From the NCBI GenBank assembly GCA_964523565.1, contig CAZGAK010000004.1, positions 12,933-76,932 of the forward strand: a stretch of DNA of 64,000 nucleotides. Reading direction: 5' to 3'. A program made the position numbers and the translations under genes. Source of the DNA: an uncultured Syntrophaceae bacterium (GTDB taxonomy: Bacteria; Desulfobacterota; Syntrophia; Syntrophales; UBA6807). Every line of letters starts with the position of its first letter. The stretch's first letter is position 1. Below, piece after piece: positions 1 through 63,137 of this stretch. The notes below the pieces were generated by a model, which saw only the letters and a program-made list of their open reading frames with translations, was not told the DNA's origin and made no database searches.

Positions 1-534
1 AAGATTTGCAAGGAGATCGATCACGGAAGAGCGAAGATCATTTATCCTTTTTGACAGGTTTCCCCTGAGGTGGGAAAGAGCAAGATCAAGTCCCCTGTCT
101 GTTTTAGCCAGGATAAGGTCGATTACCGCCTCAGCCTGTGACAGGTCAAGCCGGTTATTGAGGAAAGCCCTTTTAGTAAATTCTCCCGGGTCCGCGAGAC
201 GTGCACCAGTCTTTATGACCTCATTAAGGACTGCTTCAAGGACGACCCGCCCACCATGACAATTAATTTCCAGAGTATCCTCTCCCGTATAGGAGAGAGG
301 TTTTCTCATAACAGAAAGCAGAACCTCATCGAGAATGGTACCCGTCGTGGGTGATACAATATCTCCGTAGTAAAGGTGATGACTTTTGAAAAAACGGGGA
401 GGGGTTCCCCTTGGTTTAAACAGAAGATGTCCGATTTTCTCTGACTTCGGACCACTGACCCGTATGATCCCTATGCCGCCCACGCCACGAGGTGTGGCTA
501 TGGCTGCTATTGTATCTTCTTGTAATCGTTTCAA
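1..534 (-). CDS. mnmE: tRNA modification GTPase MnmE (TrmE), N-terminal part; continues past left edge
   Basis: Minus frame reads (M)KRLQEDTIAAIATPRGVGGIGIIRVSGPKS..., the canonical MnmE N-terminus. The only in-frame start is TTG at 534, with TGA two codons upstream. It follows jag, as in the conserved cluster. Confidence 0.9.
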   Translation of the reverse strand, partial: MKRLQEDTIAAIATPRGVGGIGIIRVSGPKSEKIGHLLFKPRGTPPRFFKSHHLYYGDIVSPTTGTILDEVLLSVMRKPLSYTGEDTLEINCHGGRVVLEAVLNEVIKTGARLADPGEFTKRAFLNNRLDLSQAEAVIDLILAKTDRGLDLALSHLRGNLSKRINDLRSSVIDLLANL

Positions 535-558
535 GTTTCAAGTTTCAAGTTTCAAGTT
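529..558. repeat. Heptad tandem repeat (TTTCAAG)x4
   Basis: Four perfect 7-nt units were read directly. They abut or overlap the mnmE TTG start. Confidence 0.9.
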
Positions 559-689
559 AGCCACGGACTTAAAAACTAATGTAGCGTTGACCCAGAGGAA
601 GAAGTCCATGTCAGCCTGTGTGCGTCTGTGGCTAAAAAAGTACACTTAAACCGGTGCAATCAAGTTCAAAAACTCAAATATCCAGCACC

Positions 690-1427
690 CTATCCCTTTT
701 TGACAGGTAATATAATAATCTTTCTGAAGGTTCCCTCTCCACGGCTCCTTGTGATTAGCTGCCTGTCATCTTGCAGGGCCATATGAACTATTCTGCGATC
801 ATGGGCATTTAAGGGGTTAACAGTAACGGGCTTTTTCGTTCTTTTTACTTTTTCTCCAAGTTTTTCTGCCAGTGCGATGAGGGTTTTTTCTCTTCTCTTT
901 CTATAATCTTCCGTATCCAGAATAATCCTTTTCCGTTCTTTCCCATTTTTATTTGTTGCCTTATTTACCAGATACTGCAGGGCGTCCAGTGTCTGCCCCC
1001 CTCTGCCTATGAGAAGACCACTGCCGTCCCCTTCAATTTCTAAAGTGATGGATTCCGATGTTTCCTCTACCTGCACCGGATAATCGAGTCCCATTCGTTT
1101 GAGTATGCCATCGAGTTTTTCTCTTGCTCTCATTGCAAGATTTTCTTCAGATTCCTTGATCCCCGGTGAATCTATCTTCTGCAAATCTGAATCTTTGACG
1201 GTTTGCTCCATCTTTTCTTTTAGGGAACTTTCTATGTCAAGATCGATGGACATGATACTGGCCTTGATACAAGCCTTTTTTGATCCTACCAGGCCGAAAA
1301 AGCCAGAGGAACCTTCTGACATGATTTCTATATTCAATTTTTCCCTTGGCAGATTAAATTCTTTGCATGCTTTTTCGATAGCATCATCAATAGTTTTTCC
1401 TTCTATCTTCACAGTTTTCGCATCCAT
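690..1427 (-). CDS. jag: Jag/KhpB RNA-binding protein (Jag_N, KH, R3H)
   Basis: 245 aa. N-terminus MDAKTVKIEGKTIDDAIEKACKEF and C-terminal R3H-like segment NAHDRRIVHMALQ. It lies immediately downstream of yidC. Confidence 0.85.
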   Translation of the reverse strand: MDAKTVKIEGKTIDDAIEKACKEFNLPREKLNIEIMSEGSSGFFGLVGSKKACIKASIMSIDLDIESSLKEKMEQTVKDSDLQKIDSPGIKESEENLAMRAREKLDGILKRMGLDYPVQVEETSESITLEIEGDGSGLLIGRGGQTLDALQYLVNKATNKNGKERKRIILDTEDYRKRREKTLIALAEKLGEKVKRTKKPVTVNPLNAHDRRIVHMALQDDRQLITRSRGEGTFRKIIILPVKKG

Positions 1428-1442
1428 ATTAGTTGCCTCGTT

Positions 1443-3071: not shown

Positions 3072-3103
3072 ATAGAGACCTCCGTTCTCGTAACCCGTTG
3101 CAA

Positions 3104-3328: not shown

Positions 3329-3332
3329 TATT

Positions 3333-6069: not shown

Positions 6070-6093
6070 GGTCATCCAGAAATGGCCTTTTTT
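6070..6093 (+). terminator. Weak rho-independent terminator after uvrB
   Basis: GGTCAT/ATGGCC stem (one G-U pair), 6-nt loop, then T6. Confidence 0.4.
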
Positions 6094-6142
6094 CACAATC
6101 TCTGCGTCAGATTCAGATTTTAATCCTCGAAATACTCAATTG
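6088..6142 (+). mobile_element. Truncated MITE-like element, family 2 (left half only)
   Basis: ccttttttcacaatctctgcgtcagattcagattttaatcctcgaaatactcaattg aligns with the left half of the 45922-46065 copy. It is interrupted at 6143 by a family-1 element. Confidence 0.55.
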
Positions 6143-6314
6143 ATGATTCTGTTGATTTATGAGGATTTTCGTTCAAGATCAAGGCATGCGAAAAAAATAA
6201 CCGCAGGTGCCCCGCAGGAAATGCCCTTGGGGTGCATATAGTTGATATTCCGAGGATTATTTTGTGAGCATAACGCAGAGATTGGGTGAAAAGACCATTA
6301 ATCAACAGAATCAT
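6143..6314 (-). mobile_element. MITE-like element, family 1 (172 bp)
   Basis: Terminal inverted repeats ATGATTCTGTTGAT...ATCAACAGAATCAT. It is near-identical (reverse orientation) to 48524-48668, apart from 5 substitutions and a 27-nt insertion. Confidence 0.75.
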
Positions 6315-6341: not shown

Positions 6342-7049
6342 TTGGATAAGAGTTCGAAGACAATACAGCGCATGTTTGACGAAATAGCTCCAACCTATGA
6401 TTCCGCGAACCAGCGCCTCTCCCTCTCTATAGACACCCTCTGGAGACTGAAAACCGTCAGGGCACTCGGAATTAAAAGCAAGGACGTGATTCTGGATATT
6501 GCCACCGGTACCGGCGGCCTGGCAATGCTGGCTTTGAAGAAAAACGCCGGTTGCCGAATCGTGGGAGTAGACCTGTCGGGGAAGATGCTTGGCCTGGCGG
6601 CAAACAAGCGAAACAAAGAAGGATGCCGCGACCGGTATGCCCTTTTGAAGGGTGATGCCTGCCACATGCCTTTCCAGGGGAGTGTTTTTGACCACGCCAT
6701 GATCGGTTTCGGACTCAGAAACGTAGCCCATATGGAAAATCTGTTCAAAGAGAGCAGCAGGGTCCTCAAGAAGGGGGGGAAACTGGCGGTTCTTGAATTT
6801 TCCCTGCCACAACAACATTTCATAAATCAATTATACCTTGTATACTTCAAAAGAATACTCCCCTTTCTGGGTGGAATCATTTCGGGAAAAAGAGAAGCTT
6901 ACCGTTATCTAAGGGATTCTGTAATGGCCTTCGATTCACCCGGTGAACTTGAATACAAAATGAGGAAGCTGGGGTTCAGAATCGTCGAATCGTTACCCCT
7001 GTGGTTCGGCATCTGTCATTTATACGTTGCAGAAAATACAGGCATGTGA
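6342..7049 (+). CDS. ubiE: Demethylmenaquinone/ubiquinone C-methyltransferase family (UbiE/MenG)
   Basis: MFDEIAPTYDSANQRLSLSIDTLWR and the SAM motif ILDIATGTGGLA. TTG start at 6342 with a G-rich SD; ATG at 6372 is an alternative. Confidence 0.85.
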   Translation: MDKSSKTIQRMFDEIAPTYDSANQRLSLSIDTLWRLKTVRALGIKSKDVILDIATGTGGLAMLALKKNAGCRIVGVDLSGKMLGLAANKRNKEGCRDRYALLKGDACHMPFQGSVFDHAMIGFGLRNVAHMENLFKESSRVLKKGGKLAVLEFSLPQQHFINQLYLVYFKRILPFLGGIISGKREAYRYLRDSVMAFDSPGELEYKMRKLGFRIVESLPLWFGICHLYVAENTGM

Positions 7050-14594: not shown

Positions 14595-14617
14595 AGGAAA
14601 CACAACTTTCAATTATT

Positions 14618-14652
14618 AATTCAAAATTAAGCATTAAGAATTCAAAATTATT
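14618..14652. repeat. Heptad-periodic AT-rich tract (AATTCAA variant)
   Basis: AATTCAA AATTAAG CATTAAG AATTCAA AATTATT, between convergent ogt and proB. Confidence 0.6.
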
Positions 14653-14656
14653 ACTT

Positions 14657-33531: not shown

Positions 33532-33538
33532 GGGTTGA

Positions 33539-33566
33539 GTTTCGAGTTTCGGGTTTAAAGTTAGAA
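33539..33566. repeat. Heptad tract GTTTCGA GTTTCGG GTTTAAA GTTAGAA
   Basis: Read directly, 24 nt upstream of the grpE ATG. Confidence 0.7.
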
Positions 33567-36111: not shown

Positions 36112-36144
36112 ATATAAAACGGTTAGCTTAAAGCTCCATTTAGA

Positions 36145-36172
36145 GTCTCAAGTGTAATGTTTCAAGTTTAGA
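36145..36172. repeat. Degenerate heptad tract GTCTCAA GTGTAAT GTTTCAA GTTTAGA
   Basis: Read directly, between the dnaK stop and its terminator. Confidence 0.5.
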
Positions 36173-36182
36173 GATAAAGTAA

Positions 36183-36213
36183 GGGCGGGTTTTATCCCCG
36201 CCCTTTTCTTTTT
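36183..36213 (+). terminator. Rho-independent terminator of dnaK
   Basis: GGGCGGG/CCCGCCC stem with a 7-nt loop, followed by TTTTCTTTTT. Confidence 0.8.
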
Positions 36214-36401
36214 AGTTTCTGTAAGAGATTTTAGTAACTGGCGATATTCAGATCATAAATAAATATCAAATTTAAAGACACTTAACAAGTACCTAATTTC
36301 CTAACGCCCTGGAATTATACTCGTTGATTTCCGGGCATTTTTATGGCAGTTTATTAAGTTACAATATCAATACAGTGCAAAAAAGAAAGTTGCCATCAAA
36401 A

Positions 36402-40636: not shown

Positions 40637-40780
40637 TGAGACCTTTGAGAAATGTTCAATTTCGTTCAAGTTCAAGGAAGGCGACAATTTTAACCGCAGG
40701 AATACATTGAGTATTTTGAGGATTAAAATTTGAGCCTGACGCCGAAATTGAGCGAAAGGGGGCGTTTTGCAAAGGTCTCA
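40637..40780 (-). mobile_element. MITE-like element, family 2 (144 bp)
   Basis: TIRs TGAGACCTTTGAGAA...TTTGCAAAGGTCTCA. The reverse complement aligns along the full length with 45922-46065. Confidence 0.75.
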
Positions 40781-40823
40781 TTTTTTTATCGCTATCCCGG
40801 CACATATATTGAAGATAAATCTT

Positions 40824-45921: not shown

Positions 45922-46065
45922 TGAGACCTTTGCATAACGTCCCCTTTTGCCCAATTTCTGCGTCAGACTCAAATTTTAATCCTCGAAATATCCAATATAT
46001 TCCTGTGGTTAAAATCTTCACCTTCCTTGAACTTGAACAAAATTGAACATTCTGCAAAGGTCTCA
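45922..46065 (+). mobile_element. MITE-like element, family 2 (144 bp)
   Basis: TIRs TGAGACCTTTGCA...TGCAAAGGTCTCA, flanked by CTC on both sides. Confidence 0.75.
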
Positions 46066-46230
46066 CTCTATGGATGACAGCTTATACACCATTGCGGAAA
46101 ATTATCAAAGAGATATGTGAATTTTTAAAAAATTATGTTTAGGATGTGAAATGCAGGGTTGTAAAAATTTATAATATCCCGTAATAAAAATATTATTCTC
46201 TGTATACTTGTGTCACGGGGTTTTTCTAAA

Positions 46231-48540: not shown

Positions 48541-48668
48541 TGGTCTTTTCGCCCAATCTCTGCGTTATGCTCAAAAAATAATCCTCGGAATATCAACTAT
48601 ATGCCTGCGGTTATTTTTTGCGCATGCCTTGATCTTGAACGAAAATCTTCATAAGTCAACAGAATCAT
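48524..48668 (+). mobile_element. MITE-like element, family 1 (145 bp)
   Basis: TIRs ATGATTCTGTTGAT...GTCAACAGAATCAT. The core is about 70% identical to the family-2 core. Confidence 0.75.
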
Positions 48669-48690
48669 TCATGAATAATCATTCATGAAT
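48667..48690. promoter_or_regulatory. Two perfect 10-bp palindromes ATTCATGAAT spaced by 4 bp (candidate operator)
   Basis: ATTCATGAAT-AATC-ATTCATGAAT, equivalent to a 14-bp tandem duplication AATCATTCATGAAT x2. It lies 25 nt upstream of the symporter ATG. Confidence 0.35.
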
Positions 48691-48714
48691 AGAAAAAAGG
48701 AGAATTTTCACTAA

Positions 48715-50100
48715 ATGAACATTGCTATTGTGGGAATATTTTTTACAGGACTGATTTTTATCGGCATTCTCAGTATGAAAAAGATCAAGACCACTTCAAG
48801 CTATTTCGTGGCGGATCGAAATGGCAGCACCGTGGCTATAACGGGTTCTCTTCTGGCCACTATAATTGGCGGTTCAAGCACTATAGGTATTGCCGGCTTG
48901 GGATATTCGAAAGGGCTTGTTGGCGCATGGTGGATGCTCGTAGGAGCAATCGGTTTGTTGATTCTCTCTTGCTGGCTTGCCAAAAAGGTTAGAAATTATG
49001 CTGTCTTTACCCTCCCCGAGATCCTGGAAAGGCAATATGGAGGGAATACGATAAAAATAATAGCTTCAATCGTGATTGCAACGGCATGGCTCGGAATCAT
49101 TGCTGGACAAATTATTGCAGCAGGAAAGATTTTATCCGTTTTATGGCCGGGACAATTAGATCTGTTAATGATCACGGCAACCTCAGTTTTTATTCTTTAC
49201 ACCGTCCTTGGGGGTCAATATTCCATACTAAAGACCGATCTTATCCAGTCCATTATCATTCTTGCGGGATTGCTCATATGCCTGATCCTCAGCATATCCG
49301 CAGCAGGCGGACTGACAACAATGGCCGGACAACTCCCCGAATCTTATCTCTCTTTTCCCGTTTCCTCCGCTTTTGGCTGGACTGACCTCCTGACATTTCT
49401 TCTGTTTGTAGGTGCGGCCTATCTTGTAGGCCCCGATATCTATTCCAGGATATTCTGTTCCAAAAGCCCCGACATTGCTAAAAAATCAACCATGCTGGCA
49501 GCAATTGCAATGATTCCCATAGCTTTTTCCATTACCTTGATAGGAATAACAGCACGGGTAATGCTTCCGGGGATTCCGCCGGAAAGTGCTCTGCCCGCCC
49601 TTGTTATGAATGCAATTCCCGTCGGACTTAACGGATTGGTAATAGCAGCTCTTCTGGCGGCAGTAATGTCTTCGGCAGATACATGCCTTTTGACGACAAG
49701 TACCATTATTGCAGCGGATATCATCAATCCCGTTTTTAAATCAACAATCAATGAAAAAACTCTTCTTATGATAACGAGAATCGGAGTAATCATAATAGGA
49801 ATCATTTCACTTCTGATTGCCTTAAAATTAAAAGGCATCATTGCTTCGCTGCTTTTAGGATATACGGTATACACGAGCGGTCTGGTGATTCCTGTTCTTC
49901 TTGGATTTTACGCAAAGAGCTTGAAATTGAATGCCGTCGGTGTTATAGCAGCCATCGCAGGGGGTGGTGGAATGGGACTGTTTTTAAAATTATCAGGACA
50001 CAACAATCTTGCACTCCTTACTCTTCCTGTTTCCGCTTTTCTCCTTTTTGCGGGAAGTTATTCCGCACACTTTCTGAAAGGTAAAGAGTCTGCCAGCTGA
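48715..50100 (+). CDS. Sodium:solute symporter family transporter
   Basis: 461 aa with about 12-13 TM segments and an SSF-like organisation. Substrate unknown. Confidence 0.8.
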   Translation: MNIAIVGIFFTGLIFIGILSMKKIKTTSSYFVADRNGSTVAITGSLLATIIGGSSTIGIAGLGYSKGLVGAWWMLVGAIGLLILSCWLAKKVRNYAVFTLPEILERQYGGNTIKIIASIVIATAWLGIIAGQIIAAGKILSVLWPGQLDLLMITATSVFILYTVLGGQYSILKTDLIQSIIILAGLLICLILSISAAGGLTTMAGQLPESYLSFPVSSAFGWTDLLTFLLFVGAAYLVGPDIYSRIFCSKSPDIAKKSTMLAAIAMIPIAFSITLIGITARVMLPGIPPESALPALVMNAIPVGLNGLVIAALLAAVMSSADTCLLTTSTIIAADIINPVFKSTINEKTLLMITRIGVIIIGIISLLIALKLKGIIASLLLGYTVYTSGLVIPVLLGFYAKSLKLNAVGVIAAIAGGGGMGLFLKLSGHNNLALLTLPVSAFLLFAGSYSAHFLKGKESAS

Positions 50101-52934: not shown

Positions 52935-53585
52935 TCATGACAAGAATGCATAAGACACAAAATTCCCGTCATGACTTAAGCTGATATCAACTAACGCCTT
53001 ATTGCCCTTGATGGACACCATTGGAGATCCTAAACCATGAGGACCTTTAAGGCGAAGGATATCAATATCTTCAACATTTTGTTTAAGATGTGAAGAAATT
53101 CTTCTTTTTGCCAATCTCCTTACCACTAAGGATGCAGCGTCCGGTGAATAACGAATCTCCTCTCCCTGCATCTTCCTGATTTTCTGTACCCCACAGACGA
53201 CTGAATTAATCTCTTCTGATCTACCTGCGATTCCTACACAATGGATGTAACCGTTACCTGCAAAAATTCTGACAAACACAGGACCATGAGGTGTTTCAAC
53301 CACTCCCGACATAAAAGATCTGTTTTCCTTTACGATTTTCTCCGACGTATTCAGTCTTACTTCATATCTCCGGGGTGCAGCGGTTACATCGGCATTTGCT
53401 TTGCAAATTGCCTTATATCCCGTCTCTTTTCCTGCCCACAGGCTCCAGAGAAGGAAATCCGGCTCACTGCAATTCAAAATCTGTTGTCTCTCACATTCAC
53501 TGAAAACCCGATCAATGAAGCGCGTATCCCGGCTTTTTCCCCTCGCTTGAGGATCGGTCAAATCCACAATATCGTTGCCTATCAA
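52935..53585 (-). CDS. 4'-phosphopantetheinyl transferase
   Basis: MIGNDIVDL start and the WAGKETGYKA motif (W..KE...K). 216 aa. Confidence 0.75.
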   Translation of the reverse strand: MIGNDIVDLTDPQARGKSRDTRFIDRVFSECERQQILNCSEPDFLLWSLWAGKETGYKAICKANADVTAAPRRYEVRLNTSEKIVKENRSFMSGVVETPHGPVFVRIFAGNGYIHCVGIAGRSEEINSVVCGVQKIRKMQGEEIRYSPDAASLVVRRLAKRRISSHLKQNVEDIDILRLKGPHGLGSPMVSIKGNKALVDISLSHDGNFVSYAFLS

Positions 53586-54306
53586 AATAATCTTTCTCCA
53601 TTCGGGCCAGCTCTTTTACAATCTGTTCCGCACAGTCTCTTTGCGCTTTCAGGCCCTTACTCTCGGTATAAGGTTTAAATGTTTCTACTTTCATGGTGAA
53701 AAGTTCACCAAACCGGGGAATGTTACTGTATGTATCCTGTCCATCACCACGCAGGTAGATGCACATAACATGGCAATCGGAATTACTATTTATCAAACGG
53801 CCGACTCCATAGGAAAAGTTTTCTGTATCGACCCGGCCTGTCCGGGAACGTCTGCCCTCCGGGAAAATGAGTAAGCTCTCCCCTTTTTCCAGGAGATAAG
53901 TACACTTGTCCATGGTGGATTTCATCTTCTTTCGATTTCCGCCGCGACTTACGGGAATACACTTTGCCAGGTAACAGATAACTGCCAGAAAAATATTGCT
54001 CTGAAAATTTGCACTCTCCGGAAGGTTCCAGGGAAGTATCCTGTAATTAAGCATATAACGATGCAGGGGCGCCATGGCATAAGCCAGAACCACTGAATCT
54101 ATCATGGTCAGGTGATTGGGGCATATCATCCAGGAACCCCTGTGTTTCACAAGCAGGTCTCTGACCGTTTTCCTCGTTTTGTTCAGGTCTCTTACCCTGT
54201 ACCTCATAAGCTTTATCGCAAGAAACACAAGGGGACCAACAACGAAAACCAACAGGCTTCCCATGATGAACTGCAGGGACAGGAGATATTTTGTTGTCCT
54301 TTTCAT
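53512..54306 (-). CDS. PlsC-type (lysophospholipid) acyltransferase
   Basis: N-terminal TM helix, HX4D block CPNHLTMIDS and an FPEGRRSRTG block. Confidence 0.8.
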   Translation of the reverse strand: MKRTTKYLLSLQFIMGSLLVFVVGPLVFLAIKLMRYRVRDLNKTRKTVRDLLVKHRGSWMICPNHLTMIDSVVLAYAMAPLHRYMLNYRILPWNLPESANFQSNIFLAVICYLAKCIPVSRGGNRKKMKSTMDKCTYLLEKGESLLIFPEGRRSRTGRVDTENFSYGVGRLINSNSDCHVMCIYLRGDGQDTYSNIPRFGELFTMKVETFKPYTESKGLKAQRDCAEQIVKELARMEKDYFDRQRYCGFDRSSSEGKKPGYALH

Positions 54307-54314
54307 GGATTGCC

Positions 54315-54563
54315 TTAATTCAGCTTATTCAGTATGACATCCACAGCATCCCCGATGGTCCTGATCTGATCGGCATCATCATCATCGATTTCAATATCAA
54401 ATACATCTTCACACTTGATGATCACGTCTACCAGACGTGCGGAATTGACCTTGAGGTCATCAAGTATATGGGTATCTTTTGTCGCGTTTTCCAGCAAAGC
54501 CGGATCTTTTACATAGGGTTTGAGGATATTAACCATCTCTTGAAAAATTTGTTTTTCGTCCAT
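54315..54563 (-). CDS. Acyl carrier protein (non-AcpP type)
   Basis: 82 aa and acidic. The putative Ppant site is LDDLKVNSARLVDVI, with NSA in place of the canonical DSL. SD is AAGGAG. Confidence 0.8.
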   Translation of the reverse strand: MDEKQIFQEMVNILKPYVKDPALLENATKDTHILDDLKVNSARLVDVIIKCEDVFDIEIDDDDADQIRTIGDAVDVILNKLN

Positions 54564-54586
54564 TCTTTTTCTCCTTAATTAAAATA

Positions 54587-54621
54587 GTTTAAAGTTCCAT
54601 GTTTAAAGTTTAAAGTTCCGG
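54587..54621. repeat. Heptad tract GTTTAAA GTTCCAT GTTTAAA GTTTAAA GTTCCGG
   Basis: Read directly, just upstream of the ACP gene (minus strand). Confidence 0.8.
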
Positions 54622-54722
54622 ATCTTTCAAATCCATCGAACAATCCCAAGTTTTTGGTTAACGACCCATGATTCGACATTATGTGGCCTTCGCAGAAGGT
54701 CTCTCGGGGGTGAACCACCCAC

Positions 54723-54750
54723 AACTTGAAACTCGTAACTTGAAACTGAT
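54723..54750. repeat. Heptad tract AACTTGA AACTCGT AACTTGA AACTGAT (inverse orientation)
   Basis: Read directly, ending 1 nt from the KS stop codon. Confidence 0.8.
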
Positions 54751-54751
54751 T

Positions 54752-56038
54752 TCATCCTTCCCACTTTTTGAAAATCAAACAGCTGTTCACATCCCCAAAA
54801 CCGAAACAGGCCTTGGCAATGATTTTCAAGTCAGTGTATTCCATGACTTTGTGAGGAATCTTGTCCGCAAACACCTCAATTTCAGGATGTAAATCATCAC
54901 AATTAATCGATGGGTGCAAGAACCCTTTATATAACTGCAAGACAACGGCAACACTTTCAATTGCTCCAGCTGCTCCCAGGCAGTGACCGATCATCGATTT
55001 GGTAGAGTTTATATACGGAAAGTCCTGAGGATCTCTATTGAGAGCTCGCGACCAGTTGTTTACCTCAGATGGATCGGCAAACGTTGCCGTCAGGTGACCG
55101 TTGATTGCATCGATCTCATCAGGGGTAGTATCTGCATCAACCAAAGCGCTTCTTATACAGCGTTGCACACCATCCGGATTCGGCGCCGTCATGGAACCAC
55201 CGTTGCGCTGACCGCCGCTATTAACATACCCTCCAAGTATTTCCGCATAAATCCTCGCACCCCTGGACAGTGCCGTTTCCAATTCCTCAAGGACCAGAAC
55301 CGCTCCCCCCGCACCGGGCACAAAACCGTTTGCCGAGGCGCTCATCGGGCGGGAGCCTTTTTCCGGGTGATCGTTGAACTTGCGTGCAATAACACGCATG
55401 GAATCAAATCCGGCCCAAATATAAGGAGATGCCCCTTCAGACCCTCCTGCCAGCATCCGCTTTGCCAGTCCCGTTCGTATCCTCCACATTGCATCTACAA
55501 TGGCCTCTGTCCCGGTGCTGCAGGCGGCGGAGTTCGATGTTACCTGGTTCCCTAAAGCCAGCAAGCCTCCTACACGGGCGCTTGTTCCGCTGTTCATGAC
55601 CTGCTCGACAATCCTGCTTCCCATACGGCGCGTCCTGCCTTCATTGACCATGGGAACGACTCTTTCCGCAATCGTATCCATGCCACCGACCCCACAGCCA
55701 AGGATCGCACCCGTGTCCCAGTTTACCTGACCGTCATCATCACCAGATAATGCAAATCCCGCATCACGCCACGCATCGACGGCAGACACGGATATATATC
55801 CGATATTATCGTTCAGGGAGAGTAGCTTTTCGTGGTCGAAATAGCTCTTGCGAATCTCATCAAAATTCTCCGGCATGCCACCAATCTGGCAGGAAAACTT
55901 TAGTTCCTTCAGTCTGGGAAAGAATCGGATTCCTGACCGGCCCTCGCGCAGGGCCTGTTCAAAATTGTTCAACCCGTGTCCGTTCGGCGCCACAACGCCC
56001 ATTCCTGTTATAACAACTCTATTTTTCATTAAAATCAA
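54752..56038 (-). CDS. Beta-ketoacyl-ACP synthase (KAS I/II-like, divergent)
   Basis: Active-site Cys SNSAACSTG, and His residues in NGHLTAT and GHCLGAAG. Confidence 0.9.
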   Translation of the reverse strand: MILMKNRVVITGMGVVAPNGHGLNNFEQALREGRSGIRFFPRLKELKFSCQIGGMPENFDEIRKSYFDHEKLLSLNDNIGYISVSAVDAWRDAGFALSGDDDGQVNWDTGAILGCGVGGMDTIAERVVPMVNEGRTRRMGSRIVEQVMNSGTSARVGGLLALGNQVTSNSAACSTGTEAIVDAMWRIRTGLAKRMLAGGSEGASPYIWAGFDSMRVIARKFNDHPEKGSRPMSASANGFVPGAGGAVLVLEELETALSRGARIYAEILGGYVNSGGQRNGGSMTAPNPDGVQRCIRSALVDADTTPDEIDAINGHLTATFADPSEVNNWSRALNRDPQDFPYINSTKSMIGHCLGAAGAIESVAVVLQLYKGFLHPSINCDDLHPEIEVFADKIPHKVMEYTDLKIIAKACFGFGDVNSCLIFKKWEG

Positions 56039-56495
56039 CTCCCCTGCCGGTCAGTATACCGTAACAGACAAATTCTCCATTTTCCCTTTCCATACTGACC
56101 TTCGTTTTTAAATTTCCTCTGCGAAGATAGATTTTTTTACCCTTAATAATAACCCTTTCTCCCGGGCTTACGATACCGTTAAACTCGCAATCATCAACCA
56201 TGGTGAAAAGGGTAACTAATCGCTTAATTCGATCTGATGATAAACCTTGATGCATGAGCTGATATATACCGAAGGCAACAACGCCTGTCTGGGCCATTGT
56301 TTCAATTAAAATAACTCCGGGTGTAATCGGCTGGCCGGGGAAATGTCCCTTATAGAAGTACTCATCGTCCCGGAAGCGGTATGTTCCGATAATATGATCC
56401 TCATCCATTTCCAGTATGTCATCGATAAAACGGAACGGTTGCTGTTGAGGAACCAGAAGAAGCACATCTTCAATAGTTTTTTTATCAGCCTCCAT
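56019..56495 (-). CDS. FabZ-like 3-hydroxyacyl-ACP dehydratase
   Basis: PFRFIDDILE...YFYKGHFPGQPITPGVILIETMAQTG. The start at MEADKK (56495) overlaps the fabG stop by 11 nt. Confidence 0.8.
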   Translation of the reverse strand: MEADKKTIEDVLLLVPQQQPFRFIDDILEMDEDHIIGTYRFRDDEYFYKGHFPGQPITPGVILIETMAQTGVVAFGIYQLMHQGLSSDRIKRLVTLFTMVDDCEFNGIVSPGERVIIKGKKIYLRRGNLKTKVSMERENGEFVCYGILTGRGVDFNEK

Positions 56496-57243
56496 AAAGC
56501 CCCCCGTTAACGTGAATGACACCTCCCGTAATGTAGTTGCCCCGGCTGGCAAGAAAGGCCACAACATCGGCCACTTCTTCAGGATGCCCCATCCGTCCCA
56601 GGGGAATATTCTCAAGAATCTTTTGCTGTACGTCATCTGGAAGACTCTTCGTCATAGCCGTATCAATAAATCCCGGGGCTACCGAATTGACGAGAATGTT
56701 CCGCCCCCATAATTCCTTGGCAAGAGATTTGGTAAAAGCATCGAGAGCCGCCTTTTCCATAGTGTATGGGATCTGTCCGCCGTTGCCGGTATGTCCTACC
56801 ACACTGGAAATATTGATGATCCTGCCGCTGTCCCTGCGGAGCATGAAAAGACGCAATATCCGTTTGGTCAGGTACCAGGTACCGCGCAGCATTGTCCGCT
56901 GTGAGTCAAATTCGCCGATTTTCATCGAATTAATATCGCTGTTAATCGATATTCCGGCATTGTTGACCAACACATCCACGCAGCCTGCTATACTCTTGAT
57001 AGACTTTGCCATTTCTTCCACTTCATCCACATCGGCCAGATCCGCTTTCAGAAGAAATCCGTCTTCTATTTGAGACAGGACATCCTTCGCCTGATCCTCA
57101 CTTCTTCGATAATGAATACCTATTTTAAATCCTTCAGCGGAAAGGGCTTTGCAACACGCAGCGCCTATTCCTGTTCCACCGCCGGTAACAATGGCAACAG
57201 GTTTTAATTCTGAATTTTGAATTTTGAATTTTGAATTATTCAT
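56485..57243 (-). CDS. fabG: 3-oxoacyl-ACP reductase (SDR)
   Basis: TGGGTGIG cofactor motif and the catalytic YTMEK. The start overlaps the fabA stop (ATGA). Confidence 0.9.
   Translation of the reverse strand: MNNSKFKIQNSELKPVAIVTGGGTGIGAACCKALSAEGFKIGIHYRRSEDQAKDVLSQIEDGFLLKADLADVDEVEEMAKSIKSIAGCVDVLVNNAGISINSDINSMKIGEFDSQRTMLRGTWYLTKRILRLFMLRRDSGRIINISSVVGHTGNGGQIPYTMEKAALDAFTKSLAKELWGRNILVNSVAPGFIDTAMTKSLPDDVQQKILENIPLGRMGHPEEVADVVAFLASRGNYITGGVIHVNGGLYGG
57202..57243. repeat. Heptad tract (TTTGAAT)x3 with flanking degenerate units, inside the fabG 5' end
   Basis: TTTTAAT TCTGAAT TTTGAAT TTTGAAT TTTGAAT TATTCAT, which encodes MNNSKFKIQNSELK on the minus strand. Confidence 0.85.
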
Positions 57244-57881
57244 ATGTCTCTCTTTATAATTCCCCCCTTGGAATTGGGTGACATCTTCGGATAATCGGGA
57301 TAGACAATTCCCTTGAAGATTCCCGTACGGGCCTTTTGAATGGTCATTATCATTTCATCATCCACGAATACTTTGCCATCCCCTATGACAATACTTGAAC
57401 CTGAATCCTTAAGATGAGAAAACCGCCTGACATCAATTTCATAACGGACCGTTTGATTATAGGGTCGTATCTGTCCATTGAAGGAAATTTCCTCGCATCC
57501 CAATGCCCTGCCGCCGCCTAATCCTCCCTTCCAGGTGCAGTAAAAACCCAACAATTGCCAAATTGCGTCCACGCAAAGGCAACCCGGCTGTACGGGATCT
57601 CCCGGCATGTGGCACTGAAAATACCATGCGTCCATCCTTATATCCTGCTCGGCGATAATAGACCCCTTCCTGCCGTCACTCTTTATTGAAAGGATGCGAT
57701 CCGCCATGAGGAAGGGGGGTGCGGGTAAACGGGCATCGAAACCTTCAGGCGCATCATCAACCAATCGTCCGTAAGCAAAAGCAATCAGGTCGTTCAGTTC
57801 AAAACTTTCTTTTTTCATAAATTCAGAGTATTTCACTGTTTCCTCACATCCGGTTTTTAACTTGAAACTCGAAACTTTCAT
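57240..57881 (-). CDS. fabA: FabA-type 3-hydroxyacyl-ACP dehydratase/isomerase
   Basis: LPAPPFLMADRI and FQCHMPGDPVQPGCLCVDAIWQLLGFY...GGGRALG. The start is either ATG at 57881 (ATGA overlap with the KAS III stop) or ATG at 57818 (MKKESFEL). Confidence 0.85.
   Translation of the reverse strand: MKVSSFKLKTGCEETVKYSEFMKKESFELNDLIAFAYGRLVDDAPEGFDARLPAPPFLMADRILSIKSDGRKGSIIAEQDIRMDAWYFQCHMPGDPVQPGCLCVDAIWQLLGFYCTWKGGLGGGRALGCEEISFNGQIRPYNQTVRYEIDVRRFSHLKDSGSSIVIGDGKVFVDDEMIMTIQKARTGIFKGIVYPDYPKMSPNSKGGIIKRDI
57859..57879. repeat. Heptad tract AACTTGA AACTCGA AACTTTC
   Basis: Read directly, at the KAS III/fabA junction. Confidence 0.75.
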
Positions 57882-58864
57882 TCCAGGATCTTCAGCATCG
57901 TTCGGACCCACGTAAGCCCCGAACCAACCATGATTAATGCTATATGGTCTCCCGGTCGAAGTCTGTCCCAATTCTGACTCAGGACACACGGAGCGCTTGA
58001 GCATCCCGTATTGCCGTAATCCACAACATTGTACCAGTGATCTTCTTCAGATACATCGCACCTCTCGCATACAGTCTTCAGCATTCCCAAATTTGCCTGA
58101 TGCCCCACAAACTTGAACCGGCCTGAGTTTATGGGAAAATCTTCCTGTAACTTCCTGAGCGATTCTGTCGTTTTACGGATGGCAAAACCCTGAACGGCGC
58201 TTCCATTTTGCCTGAAGTGTCCCAGTCGGGGAACACAAACCTTGTCCCACGACAACGGATTTGAATCACAAAAAAACGCCTCAAATACCATTTTTGAAGA
58301 AACGGAAGCGGACACAACGGCGGCGCTGCTTCCATCACCAAACAGCGGTACCGACCTCCGGTCGGAATAGTCTATCGTACGGGTGAGGTTTTCCGGATTC
58401 ACGACCAGGATATAAGGTGGAAGTGTTTCAGGCTTCATATCGGACAAAAACTTGAGATCCATGCCAAAGCTGGAACATGCAGAATTAAGATCGAAACAGG
58501 GAACATCAATCCCCAGTTCCGCCGCCACGGTGGACGCTTCAGCCGGGGTAACGTAATCCGGCGCCGAACTTCCTGATACAACCATTCCCACATCTTCAGG
58601 CTTCAGCGCGGCGCGCTTCAGGGCCAGACGTGCTGCAAGAGCCCCCGTTTGCGCATTCGTGTACAGACTCGCCTCAAATGCTGCCCGCGTATCCTGATTT
58701 TTTGTCGTTTTTATATAATCCAGGGGCAGGCTCGTGCGGCGGGTACGGATACCCACACGCTCCAGAATCCACTCCTCGCTGCTTCCTATATCCAGTTCTT
58801 CCAAAAACCGGTTGGTAATTACATTTTCCGGGTGGAAATGGCCCACCCCATGAAGATACAGCAT
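57878..58864 (-). CDS. KAS III-like (FabH family) condensing enzyme
   Basis: Cys-His-Asn triad contexts LNSACSSF, VGHQAN and YGNTG. Confidence 0.85.
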   Translation of the reverse strand: MLYLHGVGHFHPENVITNRFLEELDIGSSEEWILERVGIRTRRTSLPLDYIKTTKNQDTRAAFEASLYTNAQTGALAARLALKRAALKPEDVGMVVSGSSAPDYVTPAEASTVAAELGIDVPCFDLNSACSSFGMDLKFLSDMKPETLPPYILVVNPENLTRTIDYSDRRSVPLFGDGSSAAVVSASVSSKMVFEAFFCDSNPLSWDKVCVPRLGHFRQNGSAVQGFAIRKTTESLRKLQEDFPINSGRFKFVGHQANLGMLKTVCERCDVSEEDHWYNVVDYGNTGCSSAPCVLSQNWDRLRPGDHIALIMVGSGLTWVRTMLKILE

Positions 58865-58867
58865 TTT

Positions 58868-60067
58868 TTATACTAACTCCCGTCCTATAATCATATCCTG
58901 AACTTCTCTTACCCCTTCATATATGTCGATAATATGAGCATCCCGTGCCAGCTTGGAGATCTCATATTCCGACATGAAACCGTAACCGCCATGGAGATGA
59001 AGACCCTCTTTGGTACAGAAAAGGGCCGCTTCCGCCGCAGTATTTTTCGCCAGAGAGGCATAAATCCCTCTGTCTTCGGCCTGTTCCTGAACTTTGAATG
59101 CCGCCTTCATCAGAGCCAGATCGGCCAGTTCCACTTTTTTCCACATCTTGACCAGTGTGTCTCTCGCTACGGGCATATCACAAATCCTCTGCCCGAACTG
59201 CTTGCGCTCCTTCGTATATTCTAAAGTTACATCGAAGGCCCTCTTAGCCAGACCGACGCCGATTGCCGCAACCATGGGTCTTGCATAATCAAGCACCTCA
59301 ATGGCATATTTGAAACCGAGTCTCCTGTTACCTATGATCTGGTGATCTTCGATAACTACGTCCTCAAACTTTACCGTTGCCGTATTCGACAGGCGCTGTC
59401 CGAGTTTGTCTTCCGGTTTGCCCGTTATTACCGTACCTCCTCCGGGCACGGTGATCTCCCTGGCATCGAAAGGCTGAGAAGTAACTATTCCATTATGAAT
59501 AGAATCCGAGGGGATAATTACACAGGCCACCATAAGGCTACCCGGTTTTCCCACCTTGCAAAAGACGGTAAATTGGGAGGCGTATGAAGCATTGGTAATA
59601 AAACACTTTTCCCCGTTTAAAATATACTTTCCATCATCTCTTTTTTTAATAAATGTAGTCATGGCCAGGTTATCAGAACCTGCACCCGGTTCCGTCAGAC
59701 AGAAAGATGAAATTATGGGGGCTTCAACAAAGGGACGGAGAAAGGCCTCTTTTTGTTCCTCCGTTCCATTCTGTGCAATGACGACATTGGCAAGATCGTT
59801 ACACATGGCCGATGTTGAAACTCCTGAGTCGCCATAGGACAGTTCTCTAACGATCAACGCGCTGGATACTATATCTATTTCGTATCCCTTTACAGATTCC
59901 GGAATGCTCAAGTTTAACAAACCGATCTCCCAGGCCTTATCTATTATATGCTGTGGAAAAGCATGTTCCTGTTCCAACCTCATAACATCTGGCAGTATTT
60001 CGCCTTTGACAAACTTTCGAACCGTATCCACATACATCTGCTGACTATCAGTCAGGTTGAAATCCAT
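58868..60067 (-). CDS. Acyl-CoA dehydrogenase family flavoprotein
   Basis: 399 aa with CLTEPGAGSD and the C-terminal catalytic region IYEGVREVQ. Confidence 0.9.
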   Translation of the reverse strand: MDFNLTDSQQMYVDTVRKFVKGEILPDVMRLEQEHAFPQHIIDKAWEIGLLNLSIPESVKGYEIDIVSSALIVRELSYGDSGVSTSAMCNDLANVVIAQNGTEEQKEAFLRPFVEAPIISSFCLTEPGAGSDNLAMTTFIKKRDDGKYILNGEKCFITNASYASQFTVFCKVGKPGSLMVACVIIPSDSIHNGIVTSQPFDAREITVPGGGTVITGKPEDKLGQRLSNTATVKFEDVVIEDHQIIGNRRLGFKYAIEVLDYARPMVAAIGVGLAKRAFDVTLEYTKERKQFGQRICDMPVARDTLVKMWKKVELADLALMKAAFKVQEQAEDRGIYASLAKNTAAEAALFCTKEGLHLHGGYGFMSEYEISKLARDAHIIDIYEGVREVQDMIIGRELV

Positions 60068-60108
60068 AATTATTCTCCCTTTGTGATTCGTTTAAACCCG
60101 AATCGATT

Positions 60109-61059
60109 TCATAGACGATTTTTTTCAAACAGCCGGCTTGCTGCCGAAAGGGTGGTAATGGACAGGCATGGCACACCTGCAGTTTTGAAGAATTCCCTGA
60201 GGGGGCGGCTCGGTCCTATTTCAACAATCGAGTTTGCCACGGAAGCCATGGCTTCCATATTTTGTCTCCACTGGACCGTGCTGCTTAATTGAGATGCCAG
60301 TTGATCAATAATTTCACTGCAATGGTCTGAATAAAAACGACCGGTGAAATTTGAGGTAACTTTTTCTGCGTTTTTCGGTGTCAACTTCAAGATGAGAGCC
60401 CGTAAGGCCTCTTTAAAAGCTTCCATCACGGCATTCATAAAACGGCTGTGGAAGGGTGCGCTTACGTTGAGAGGTACGAAACGAAATGATTGCTTTCCGC
60501 TGAAAGCTTCCTCAAGACGATCCTTCGCTTCGGGCATTGCACTCGATTTACCGCTTATAACGACCTGATTGGCAGAGTTGTCATTCGCCAAATCAATTGG
60601 CAGTTCACTTAATGTCTGTCGGACCATGTTTAAGTCCAGATCATCTGATATAACAGCCGCCATCCCTCCCATTCCCGCGGGTGTTGCTTCCTGCATGAGT
60701 TGGCCGCGAATACTCACGACTTTCAGGGCTTCGGAAAAAGGTAAAACACCGGCAGCAACCAGGGCGGTGTATTCGCCCAGGCTATGGCCACCAAAATATT
60801 GAGGGGTAAAATTATATAGGGAATGGAGTCCACGCAGCATGGCAATTTCCGTTGCAAGAATACATGGTTGGGCATATTTTGTCAGATTCAGTCTTTCGTC
60901 CTCTCCAAAACACATAGTCGCAACATCCCAACCCAGGATGTCGGATGCTTCATGATATGTGTCTCTGCTCACGGGAATATTCTCATAAAAGTCCTTCCCC
61001 ATGCCGGGACGTTGAGCCCCCTGTCCGGGAAAGGCAACAGCTATAATCGATCCATTCAT
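60109..61059 (-). CDS. fabD: Malonyl-CoA:ACP transacylase
   Basis: FPGQGAQ and GHSLGEY motifs. Confidence 0.9.
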   Translation of the reverse strand: MNGSIIAVAFPGQGAQRPGMGKDFYENIPVSRDTYHEASDILGWDVATMCFGEDERLNLTKYAQPCILATEIAMLRGLHSLYNFTPQYFGGHSLGEYTALVAAGVLPFSEALKVVSIRGQLMQEATPAGMGGMAAVISDDLDLNMVRQTLSELPIDLANDNSANQVVISGKSSAMPEAKDRLEEAFSGKQSFRFVPLNVSAPFHSRFMNAVMEAFKEALRALILKLTPKNAEKVTSNFTGRFYSDHCSEIIDQLASQLSSTVQWRQNMEAMASVANSIVEIGPSRPLREFFKTAGVPCLSITTLSAASRLFEKNRL

Positions 61060-61189: not shown

Positions 61190-61205
61190 TGGAACATTAT
61201 CTGCT
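61190..61205 (+). promoter_or_regulatory. Candidate sigma-54 promoter element
   Basis: TGGAACATTATCTGCT has GG and GC at the consensus spacing of TGGCAC-N5-TTGC. It lies about 295 nt upstream of the kinase ATG. Confidence 0.25.
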
Positions 61206-61498
61206 CATGGTTTGTCATGTGAATAGCGTTGCAAGGTGTGTAATTTCCTTCGCAGCCGGAAGGATACTACGCAACATTCAAGTTAAGCCTGGGGATGGGG
61301 AATTTGGAAGCATGAAACGAATTGAAGATTTTTATGTTTTTTGATAGTGTACAATCCTGTTTTTTAAGGTGTTGCAAAATCTATTGAAATAATAATATAT
61401 GAAATGCTTCTTTTTCTTGAACAGAATAAAGTGGTAAGAAAAAAATAACTCAGTGGAGTTCCCCGCCCCATCACAATCCCCGAACGGGACAATAAAGT

Positions 61499-63001
61499 AT
61501 GGAAACTTTTGTAGCAGCAACGATTAGCCTGACCATATCGACGGCTCTTATCATCAAAGGAAAGAAAAATCCTCTTTATCTTTCCTTTGCTGTTTTATGT
61601 TTCGCCTTATTTTCTCAGAAAATAGGCATTTTTTTGTATGGGATTTTGCATACCGATTATTGGAAAGCTGTATATTACCTGGGTATCCTTTCTATACCAC
61701 CCCTTGCCATTACATTCAGTCGTTATTTGCTGCACCACCACACGTTCTTATCCAGACGAGACACTATCTTGACAGGTTTTGTAAGTCTTCTGATTGTTGC
61801 AGCCCTTTTTACCCCTTTATTCCGATGGCATTACCTTAATATCTTATTGTACATATATTGCGGTCTTGTCCTGATTTACTGTTTCACAGCCCTTATCCGC
61901 CAAATTATGGAAGAGCCTCCGGGTGCTGAAAAAAAAAGGCTGGTCTATGTGGCAAGTGCCTGTATCGTGGCCGCTGTCTTCAGCCTTTCCGATGTATTGA
62001 ATAGCTATGGATTACCTCCACTGTCCGACATAGCCCTTGTCGCTCTCATCTACTTCCTCTTCATTATTATCACCCACACGGATATTCCGGAATTGTATGA
62101 AATCATGCTGAGGACTATCCTGATTTTTTTCGTTATATTGTTTGCGACCGCTGTAATTTACGTAGTTACCGATTTGTTTGATGAGAGGCAAAAGCTTTCG
62201 TTTACAAGTGTCTTTATGGCATCCTTCCTCATCGTAATCCTGATAGACCCTCTCAAAATGATTTTGAGAAAAACTTTCAGTTATTTCTTTTTTGATAAAA
62301 AAGACCTTTCAGCTTCTCTTTATTCGATTGACGACGAGTTGGAGAAAAAGAATTTTGCCCTTCTCGAAGAGACGGCAACGGGCCTTGCCCATGAGATACG
62401 AAACCCCCTTGGTTCTATAAAAGGTGCAGCCGAGTACCTTAAAGAAGTGGATACGACGGAAAACCCCAAACTTCTTGACATCATTATAGAAGAAACAGAC
62501 AGACTGAATACCGTCGTATCTCAATTCCTGAATTATGCAAAACCTTACGTAATGAATGCGGAAAAACAGGACATAAACAATATCATCAAGAAGGTTATCT
62601 CCCTGATTAAAGCTACAAATCTTCCGGAGAATATTACAATCGAAGAAAATCTTGACCCTGATTTGCCGGATGTTAAGATGGATGGGGAACAAATGATCCA
62701 GGTTATTCTGAACATGGCATTGAACGGAATAGATGCCATGCACGATGGCGGCACTTTAAGTTTTGCAACATCAAGGATAAAAAATGACGGGGGGAAAAGA
62801 GTGGAAATTACCGTTCGTGACACAGGTCGTGGGATCAATAAAGAAGACTTGAAAACGATTTTCAAGCCTTTTTTTACAACGAAGAAAAAAGGTACCGGCC
62901 TTGGTCTCCCAATATGTCAAAGGATCGTCAAAAACCATGGTGGTCATATTTATGTAGAATCGACTCCCGGCAAGGGAACGGCATTTTTTGTAAGGCTTTG
63001 A
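61499..63001 (+). CDS. Membrane sensor histidine kinase
   Basis: About 7 N-terminal TM segments, H-box LAHEIRNPL and HATPase boxes (DTGRGI, GTGLGL). Confidence 0.85.
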   Translation: METFVAATISLTISTALIIKGKKNPLYLSFAVLCFALFSQKIGIFLYGILHTDYWKAVYYLGILSIPPLAITFSRYLLHHHTFLSRRDTILTGFVSLLIVAALFTPLFRWHYLNILLYIYCGLVLIYCFTALIRQIMEEPPGAEKKRLVYVASACIVAAVFSLSDVLNSYGLPPLSDIALVALIYFLFIIITHTDIPELYEIMLRTILIFFVILFATAVIYVVTDLFDERQKLSFTSVFMASFLIVILIDPLKMILRKTFSYFFFDKKDLSASLYSIDDELEKKNFALLEETATGLAHEIRNPLGSIKGAAEYLKEVDTTENPKLLDIIIEETDRLNTVVSQFLNYAKPYVMNAEKQDINNIIKKVISLIKATNLPENITIEENLDPDLPDVKMDGEQMIQVILNMALNGIDAMHDGGTLSFATSRIKNDGGKRVEITVRDTGRGINKEDLKTIFKPFFTTKKKGTGLGLPICQRIVKNHGGHIYVESTPGKGTAFFVRL

Positions 63002-63109
63002 CTGCGTCATATGCTCAATTGACTTGACAGCAGCTATAACCCATAATAGTTATCTATTTTAAAGGGTATAAAGGGAGAGGGAGCATTTTTGACTTTCAAC
63101 GAAACCATC

Positions 63110-63137
63110 AAACTTTAAACCTGAAACTTGAAACTTA
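63110..63137. repeat. Heptad tract AAACTTT AAACCTG AAACTTG AAACTTA
   Basis: Read directly, ending 7 nt before the regulator ATG. No SD is visible. Confidence 0.8.

Follow-up and report, generated by a model that had tools for sequence, protein, structure and literature searches.

What are the short tracts of tandem 7-nt units, mostly GTTTCAA or its complement TTGAAAC, that lie dispersed over a 64,000-nt stretch of DNA from an uncultured Syntrophaceae bacterium (assembly GCA_964523565.1, contig CAZGAK010000004.1, positions 12,933 to 76,932)? The whole stretch is referred to here as the window, and positions are given in its coordinates. A first-pass annotation, made from the letters alone, had suggested that the strict 7-nt phasing reflects a repeat-reading protein or an RNA-level signal. 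We instead favour, with a probability of roughly 0.6, the view that the tracts are slippage-driven heptanucleotide microsatellites, akin to the short tandemly repeated repetitive (STRR) sequences and long simple sequence repeats (LSSR) of other bacteria, that are filtered by selection and would have incidental effects on expression. The earlier interpretation is partly supported, in that the tracts are a real family and are neither miniature inverted-repeat transposable elements (MITEs) nor terminators, but their architecture has already been described.

Phased heptad tracts are a non-random family

Phased 7-nt tandem tracts were confirmed, by eye and by program, in 9/9 coordinate ranges of the 64-kb window (Table 1), which lowers the ‘10 or more sites’ initially counted to nine. 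Tandem Repeats Finder was run on the window for period detection and reported period 7 at seven sites (528-558, 14618, 33537, 54586, 54723, 57202 and 63101/63110). A consensus scan that asks for 3 units and allows up to 4 mismatches also recovered the more degenerate tracts at 36145 and 57859. That scan places seven tracts in a GTTTCAA/TTGAAAC family, where the + strand reads GTTTCAA at 528, 33539, 36145 and 54587 and the - strand does so at 54726, 57855 and 63107. The remaining two tracts, at 14619 (+) and 57202 (-), have the unit AATTCAA, which holds TTCAA in common with the GTTTCAA family. From 28 in-register units of the seven tracts we derive a family consensus of G.96, T 1.0, T.93, T.82, C.61, A.75, A.79, meaning that GTT is nearly fixed and the 3' half (positions 5-7) is loose. 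The pattern AA-N-TT-N-A, proposed at first as common to all tracts, fits GTTTAAA and AATTCAA units and does not fit the main unit GTTTCAA.

The seven GTTTCAA-family tracts compare with 0.04 expected from dinucleotide-preserving shuffles of the whole window, and with 0.022 expected (maximum 1 in 1000) from shuffles of its 8.9 kb of intergenic DNA, which has 37% G+C. A chance origin of the tracts is excluded, and with it the concern that they are a by-product of AT-rich low-complexity sequence. All seven lie within the non-coding 13.8% of the window. Period 7 is the sole enriched period in the window as a whole that is not a multiple of 3, the enrichment being seen against periods 5, 8 and 10, and period-7 tracts are non-coding in 8/9 cases, while tracts of period 6, 9 and 12 lie in genes. 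The fabG tract is the only coding tract of the nine. Because 7 is not a multiple of 3, and because the TTGAAAC strand has TGA in every frame, arrays survive only in spacers. The tracts show what is expected of heptanucleotide tandem repeats in the broad sense (LSSR/STRR-type): at least three head-to-tail copies, a frequency above that given by composition, exclusion from coding DNA, and lengths that change by whole multiples of 7 nt from one related genome to another.

Gene contexts were assigned by Pfam and sequence inspection, and comprise 5' leaders, a 3' untranslated region (UTR), intra-operon spacers, a gap between convergent genes and one coding N-terminus. These contexts fit intergenic DNA without a positional rule, with 5'-proximal, 3'-UTR, intra-operon and convergent sites and both orientations represented. 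The initial description of tracts in spacers or first codons and in both orientations was sound as to a real, non-random placement on both strands, but not all tracts are 5'-proximal: the exceptions are at 36145 (between the dnaK stop and its terminator), 54723 (3' of the ketosynthase gene) and 14618 (in a gap flanked by convergent genes). For fabA, the tract had been assigned to the first codons but actually lies between the FabH stop and the Shine-Dalgarno (SD) sequence and GTG start of fabA. We do see tracts in place of an SD sequence at mnmE and the NtrC-like gene, as had been claimed; at both, a start codon without SD adjoins the tract, while at the acyl carrier protein (ACP) gene the tract is followed by an SD. 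The start of mnmE, a gene with a TrmE_N Pfam match, was placed within the last heptad unit by the gene caller. The FabD-ACAD (acyl-CoA dehydrogenase) spacer is without an array, so arrays are not found in every spacer.

A side observation concerns the - strand at 528-562, where each 7-nt repeat of (TTGAAAC)n brings a TTG start and a TGA stop into overlap as TTGA. Across three units this yields a 5-codon mini open reading frame (ORF; MKLET*), the stop of which overlaps the mnmE TTG start.

As RNA, (GUUUCAA)6 and (UUGAAAC)6 have a folding energy of 0 kcal/mol, showing that direct arrays are structure-free. Tract regions fold no better than shuffles (z -0.1 to +0.7), and the mnmE and NtrC leaders are unremarkable. 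The inverted tracts of the ketosynthase (KS)-ACP spacer pair in the minimum free energy structure, yet give z = -0.05 against shuffles. Neither an Rfam scan nor a tRNA scan of the window returned a match. On the strength of the 0 kcal/mol direct arrays, the shuffle-like folding and the lack of an Rfam match, an intrinsic terminator or other structured RNA was rejected, in agreement with the first-pass view that these are not hairpin terminators.

Array histories in related genomes

Loci from compared genomes are given as L-numbered entries (e.g. L133, L263). Homologues of Jag and FabG carry the names ‘Deltaproteobacteria’, Syntrophales, Syntrophobacterales or Thermodesulfobacteriota, and the lineage of the window belongs, uncultured, to that group; it occurs in several lake or sediment metagenomes. 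Six contigs with an identical GrpE and six with an identical Jag have the same tracts as the window, including the perfect (TTGAAAC)4, and no copy-number polymorphism was seen among these 6+6 conspecific consensus assemblies from different samples. This indicates that we are not dealing with a fast phase-variation locus, and a phase-variable contingency repeat was rejected on this basis.

Upstream of mnmE, among relatives with a Jag that is 92-95% identical, L264 and L265 have a single ATTGAAAC, the TTG of which is the mnmE start (MKLSQEDTIAA...). Four units are present in L263 (CTGAAAC x2 + TTGAAAC x2), and four perfect units in the window. The single resident TTGAAAC of the former relatives indicates that the mnmE array grew in place, from one unit to four, and since these same relatives also have no SD, the SD-less mnmE start predates the expansion. 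A second heptad family, GGATRCT, located 3' of the jag stop, varies from ~2 to ~4 units among the same relatives.

The grpE tract is kept in L133 and L134 (90% GrpE identity) with its units reshuffled and its total length unchanged; in L134, GTTTCGA is missing and there is an extra GTTAGxx. Relatives at 74% GrpE identity or less have a short spacer and no tract. On the 3' side of dnaK, the window and L133 differ by a clean 35-nt (5x7) indel, namely the tract, which L133 is without; its flanks are 91% identical. L133 has its own heptad tracts further downstream of dnaK, which are missing from the window. At 6390-6580 it also carries a ~250 nt insertion and inverted GAAATTC/GTTTCGA/TTCGAAA heptad tracts 5' of a phospholipase D-like (PLD-like) gene, with none at window positions 36290-36330.

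FabG (56485-57243, -) has an N-terminus that is a hypervariable tail built from heptad arrays. Its close homologues (P0121-P0234) are 242-286 aa long, and those at 85-97% identity have 245, 252, 256, 260 or 263 aa. Length differences within one type of tail are 7 or 14 aa (245 vs 252, 256 vs 263): MNNS[KFKIQNS]ELKPVA and MNNSELKPVA correspond to the 252- and 245-aa proteins, and tails of the KPETRN type to 256 and 263 aa. In the fabG DNA this is a matter of 5 vs 2 AATTCAA-type units, as the step from 245 to 252 aa equals three units, or 21 nt, the only step size that keeps the frame. The peptide repeat tracks the heptad family (NSKFKIQ vs KPETRNP). At this place in fabG, L266 has (CYGAAAC)5, coding for MKPETRNPKPETPDD, with the in-frame TGA mutated away.

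Two spacers near fabG differ in heptad family from lineage to lineage. The FabH-FabA spacer contains GTTTCGA GTTTCAA in the window and, with substitutions, in L269; in L266 (2758-2848), L267 (2819-2908) and L268 (2845-2908) it holds a hairpin of GAACAGT/GGTCAGT heptads, which we take to resemble the cyanobacterial STRR units CAACAGT and TTGGTCA. The KS-ACP spacer of L266 and L267 is 53 nt with GTTTCGA GTTTAA GTTGTAA, orthologous to 54719..54753 of the window, which has this orthologous tract plus ~130 nt more, ending in an inverted tract. In L268 and L269 the spacer has xxxTCAG heptads. With different heptad families carried across lineages, the FabH-FabA and KS-ACP spacers show no sequence constraint at the site.

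In short, the compared loci show in-place amplification, change in 7-nt steps and replacement by unrelated heptads at the same site, with arrays kept out of reading frames except in 21-nt steps.

Table 1 Location, strand, unit composition and gene context of the nine phased heptad tracts
Coordinates	Strand	Units	Context
528..562	+	(GTTTCAA)4.4, perfect	jag-mnmE spacer; gene strand (-) reads (AACTTGA)4AAC, ends in mnmE TTG start (complement of 532-534)
14612..14653	+	Degenerate AATTCAA family: AATTCAA AATTAAG CATTAAG AATTCAA AATTATT	Between convergent genes, methyltransferase-like (end 14594) and glutamate-kinase-like (end 14657)
33532..33566	+	GGGTTGA GTTTCGA GTTTCGG GTTTAAA GTTAGAA	SIS-domain gene stop (33531) to grpE (33590); sense orientation, 5' of grpE ribosome-binding region
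36140..36174	+	Degenerate: GTCTCAA GTGTAAT GTTTCAA GTTTAGA + flanking units; 35 nt (5x7)	After dnaK stop (36111), before dnaK terminator hairpin (~36183-36215)
54587..54621	+	GTTTAAA GTTCCAT GTTTAAA GTTTAAA GTTCCGG	Inverted partner of 54719-54753; on gene strand (-), TTTAAAC-type units just 5' of AAGGAG SD + ATG of ACP gene (54315-54563)
54719..54753	-	GTTTCAA GTTACGA GTTTCAA GTTGTGG (gene strand)	Directly 3' of ketosynthase stop (54752)
57202..57243	-	ATG AAT + (AATTCAA)3 AATTCAG AATTAAA	fabG codons 2-13, encodes MNNSKFKIQNSELK; fabG ATG and fabA stop overlap (ATGA)
57855..57882	-	GTTTCGA GTTTCAA GTTAAAA (gene strand)	FabH-like stop (57878-57880) to FabA-like SD/GTG start (~57845)
63100..63141	-	+ (gene) strand: CGAAACC ATCAAAC TTTAAAC CTGAAAC TTGAAAC TTAGATT	Ends 3 nt 5' of ATG (63145) of sigma-54-dependent response regulator (NtrC-like); no SD

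The fabG gene belongs to a ten-gene lipid-type operon at 52935-61059 (-), comprising acyltransferase, acyl-CoA dehydrogenase, FabH-like, FabA-like, FabG, second dehydratase, ketosynthase, ACP, acyltransferase and phosphopantetheinyl transferase (PPTase) genes. The dehydratases of the relatives match ApeI/ApeP-like families, and the operon may be aryl-polyene-like as opposed to one for housekeeping fatty-acid synthesis. Elsewhere in the window, a perfect 14-nt tandem, AATCATTCATGAAT x2.1, at 48663-48691 amounts to two palindromic ATTCATGAAT boxes. These lie ~25 nt 5' of a gene start at 48715 and look like a putative operator.

Arrays in other genomes

An exact (GTTTCAA)3 scan, with one genome per species, gave at least 120 stretches. 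Going by record titles, the matches listed include ~43 from Bacteroidota (22 of them Flavobacterium), ~22 from Acidobacteriota, ~17 from the Planctomycetes-Verrucomicrobia-Chlamydiae (PVC) group and ~18 that are Desulfobacterota-like, 7 of these in Desulfonema magnum, with scattered others. The loci around the listed matches hold 396 period-7 arrays in 887 kb, compared to 20 weak ones in 389 kb of an unselected grpE-locus control. In other phyla, again among the matches listed, only 15% of 122 arrays are spanned by a long ORF, vs 64% of random positions. We could place 108 of 130 such arrays, the other 22 being at a locus edge: 60 lie between co-directional genes, 19 between divergent and 13 between convergent genes, and 16 inside ORFs. 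The orientation split of the 60 co-directional arrays (39 vs 21) is a weak bias obtained with crude ORF calling, and we give it no weight.

An inverted GTTTCAA/TTGAAAC pair folds at -23.6 kcal/mol. In the listed loci L007-L126, Flavobacterium, Acidobacteriota and the PVC group mostly show the order GTTTCAA..loop..TTGAAAC, and Desulfonema magnum and other Desulfobacterales mostly the reverse. Across the 120 loci listed from other genomes, no gene family was found repeatedly next to (GTTTCAA)>=3 arrays. The largest neighbour ‘family’ looks like ORFs read through the arrays themselves.

A control on viral contigs bears on how this distribution should be read. There, (GTTTCAA)3 occurs in 24 stretches, and two composition-matched permutations of the heptad occur in 14 and 12. 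As permuted heptads are about half as frequent, the wide taxonomic spread is no mark of GTTTCAA as special; the proposal that it is a special unit was rejected, any heptad in three copies being common.

Origin and possible function of the arrays

We propose that this lineage may generate and remodel heptad arrays unusually often. The comparison shows that a single resident heptamer is amplified in place and that units are then gained, lost and mutated in 7-nt steps, probably by slipped-strand mispairing in replication or repair with a lineage-specific preference for steps of this size. Selection acts as a filter, such that arrays persist in spacers and, within genes, only as three-unit (21-nt) steps in a tolerant N-terminal tail. 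Any effect on expression would be mostly incidental: direct arrays would lengthen spacers with A/U-rich, structure-free RNA, inverted pairs could form hairpins, and the mnmE array may merely duplicate, out of frame, the surroundings of an already SD-less TTG start. We do not think it likely that a dedicated heptad-reading factor binds at the arrays.

The comparative picture supports this mutation-driven origin with selection as a filter, and it lets the history of such arrays be followed with unusual clarity: one array arose from a single heptamer that contains a start codon, whole arrays differ as indels whose lengths are exact 7-nt multiples, units are exchanged while the spacers that carry them stay the same, and in-frame 21-nt steps build a variable FabG N-terminal tail. 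For annotators there is a caution here, in that such tracts should not be taken as regulatory motifs.

Several observations nonetheless weigh against slippage with incidental effects. One unit family dominates, accounting for 7/9 window tracts, and decay within its units is uneven, with GTT near-invariant (chi-square roughly p = 0.0005, calculated on amplified variant units that are not independent). Pure neutral decay does not predict such unevenness, though amplified variant units could yield the pattern. In all relatives it is the same few spacers that contain arrays, possibly a sign that an array of some kind is required at these places, and the total length of the grpE tract is the same in three lineages. 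That (TTGAAAC)4 is identical in six conspecific assemblies indicates that slippage is not fast at that copy number. Finally, an inverted partner lies within 150 nt downstream of 28% of arrays and upstream of 11% among the matches listed, vs 2.4% of control windows, and this excess is left unexplained by slippage alone.

A role in RNA seems unlikely to us, yet it is not without arguments. The tracts would be cis-acting elements in leaders and operon spacers, with unstructured A/U-rich repeats to which a protein that binds single-stranded RNA would attach (candidates are ribosomal protein S1, cold-shock proteins and CsrA-like proteins) and so determine translation or the stability of the mRNA. 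Start codons adjoin three of the tracts, and two of the genes concerned (mnmE, NtrC-like) are without SD; the arrays have no RNA structure, the GTT of each unit is conserved, and in Desulfonema and other Desulfobacterales GTTTCAA arrays often stand directly before SD+ATG. The AACUUUAA units 5' of the ACP gene are presumably also comparable to the ‘epsilon’ translational enhancer of T7 gene 10, UUAACUUUA. An RNA-level role of this kind has also been argued for TAACTGA repeats (PMC4679880). However, among the tracts of this family in the window GTTTCAA is on the sense strand at 4 sites and TTGAAAC at 3, which leaves no single RNA motif common to them; some tracts lie in a 3' UTR or between convergent genes; and the SD-less mnmE start exists without an array. 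Close relatives also differ in which tracts they have, by lengths that are multiples of 7 nt, and in sister lineages unrelated heptads take the place of a tract at the same spacer. This turnover, together with the mixed orientation and context, leaves the repeat-reading protein or RNA signal of the first-pass annotation unsupported. The turnover tells also against the arrays as DNA operators, whose adjoining 7-bp units a protein would recognise whichever way they are oriented; this possibility we judge very improbable. Models for such a protein exist in the ribbon-helix-helix omega repressor, which acts on WATCACW heptads, and in the Box A heptamers of P1 parS (ATTTCAA/C). Strict 7-bp phasing, occurrence in both orientations, direct and inverted arrangements and the conserved G-T-T of each unit would all suit an operator, and x5 heptad arrays of Geobacter metallireducens have been annotated as ‘predicted global regulator binding sites’ (Aklujkar et al., PMC2700814). 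Most window sites, though, are not promoters but spacers between coupled genes of an operon, a 3' UTR before a terminator, a convergent gap and a coding N-terminus; no gene family recurs beside the 120 loci listed from other genomes, and no candidate protein was identified.

It is somewhat less improbable, but still doubtful, that the arrays were made by, or serve as cis-sites for, a sequence-specific system that different phyla share or have exchanged, whether a heptad-generating activity or a heptad-reading RNA- or DNA-binding regulator. This is suggested by the GTTTCAA/TTGAAAC arrays, often hairpin-paired, of Flavobacterium, Acidobacteriota, the PVC group, Desulfonema and the window lineage, and such a system would explain both the conservation of GTT and the excess of inverted pairs. 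Least credible of all is a mobile origin, in which a MITE or similar element would insert ready-made heptad-rich DNA and the tracts would be its fragments or terminal repeats. The presence or absence of the dnaK tract is clean, and its units diverge more from each other than its flanks do between genomes. In the KS-ACP spacer of the window, two inverted tracts enclose a ~100-nt core (54622-54718) that is missing from relatives, and L133 has a similar inverted pair around ~130 nt. These two cores are nevertheless unrelated by eye, no flanking sequence is common to any two tracts or to tracts and the MITE-like elements of the window, no target-site duplications were seen, and the arrays at mnmE and fabG expanded locally from sequence that was already present.

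The MITE-like elements themselves are found at 40640-40781 and 45931-46066, with related cores at 6086-6300 and 48544-48640. They have terminal inverted repeats, TGAGACCTTTGCA / TGCAAAGGTCTCA, and a shared ~55-nt core (families D1 and D3). A motif related to the tracts had been noted inside these cores: CTTGAACTTGAAC is indeed present (46026; reverse strand 40664), but its period is 6 and other copies of the element are without it. Families D1 and D3 from the repeat search include no tract and share nothing with the tracts, so the reading of tracts as MITE fragments was rejected.

Comparison with known heptanucleotide systems

The first-pass annotation knew of no described element class with this architecture, but intergenic tandem heptanucleotide arrays are documented (PMC2670836, PMC4679880, PMC2700814). 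Arrays of this kind have been noted for 35 years, as STRR, LSSR and TAACTGA repeats, without an agreed origin or function. One close description is that of the TAACTGA heptamer direct repeats of marine Beggiatoaceae, where a Beggiatoa genome has them at 169 sites; some Cyanobacteria and Bacteroidetes carry them too (MacGregor 2015, PMC4679880). These have 2-6 copies per set, lie mostly just 5' of start codons without SD, are predicted to be unstructured, and show 7-nt indels between strains, with shorter spacers in repeat-free relatives; an RNA-level role with a single-strand RNA-binding factor was proposed for them in Beggiatoaceae (PMC4679880). The window tracts are alike in being tandem 7-nt intergenic units, some before SD-less starts, with structure-free RNA and 7-nt indels. 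They also have one strand with stops in all frames and the other open, and array-free relatives have shorter spacers. They differ in their unit, as GTTTCAA/TTGAAAC gives at most 4/7 matches to TAACTGA in any register or strand (compared by hand), and membership of the TAACTGA family was rejected on this ground. The host is a deltaproteobacterial anaerobe, and the units are much more degenerate. Orientation towards the downstream gene is mixed in the window, unlike the mostly ‘forward’ repeats of Beggiatoa: among the nine tracts, single-orientation, start-proximal and SD-less placement is true for mnmE and the NtrC-like gene, and four tracts are opposite or 3' of genes.

In filamentous cyanobacteria the STRR units are CCCCAGT, TTGGTCA and CAACAGT. 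These 7-bp repeats occupy intergenic and intra-operon spacers, e.g. hupS-hupL, and form hairpins when present in both orientations; their function is unknown, with transcript stability or translational coupling suggested (PMC2670836). The tandem 7-bp units of the window likewise sit in intergenic and intra-operon spacers and have hairpin potential when both orientations are present. Copy numbers are lower, however, the host is not a cyanobacterium and the unit is not that of STRR; membership of STRR in the strict sense was rejected, given that the Jag and FabG homologues are deltaproteobacterial by name and the unit is GTTTCAA.

Among LSSR, which have 5-11-nt units, heptanucleotides are the most abundant class and have a sporadic taxonomic spread; units that are not a multiple of 3 are excluded from coding DNA, and polymerase slippage has been proposed (Mrazek et al. 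2007, as summarised in PMC4679880). The window tracts share the heptanucleotide unit and the exclusion from coding DNA, and the survey, as represented in that summary, is statistical and includes neither GTTTCAA nor the window lineage. A deltaproteobacterial precedent is found in Geobacter metallireducens, with GGACCGG x4 at 49 sites and MTYCTGA x5 at 15 sites, annotated as putative regulatory RNA or binding sites without comparative evidence (PMC2700814). There, as here, four or five tandem heptads are dispersed in a deltaproteobacterial genome, but the main Geobacter unit is GC-rich and occurs also within genes.

The window tracts also resemble contingency simple sequence repeats (SSRs), as short tandem repeats near gene starts that change by slippage. 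The phase-variable SSRs of host-adapted pathogens have higher copy numbers and 1-5-nt units, and switch surface genes on and off. The tracts described here are instead next to housekeeping genes and 3-5 copies long, and six conspecific assemblies agree in their copy number.

In the searchable literature we found no report of a literal GTTTCAA tandem in bacteria. The architecture of the tracts is that of a described class, while the unit GTTTCAA and the host lineage are new, and the phenomenon of heptanucleotide arrays is thereby extended to this unit and to an uncultured anaerobic deltaproteobacterial lineage.

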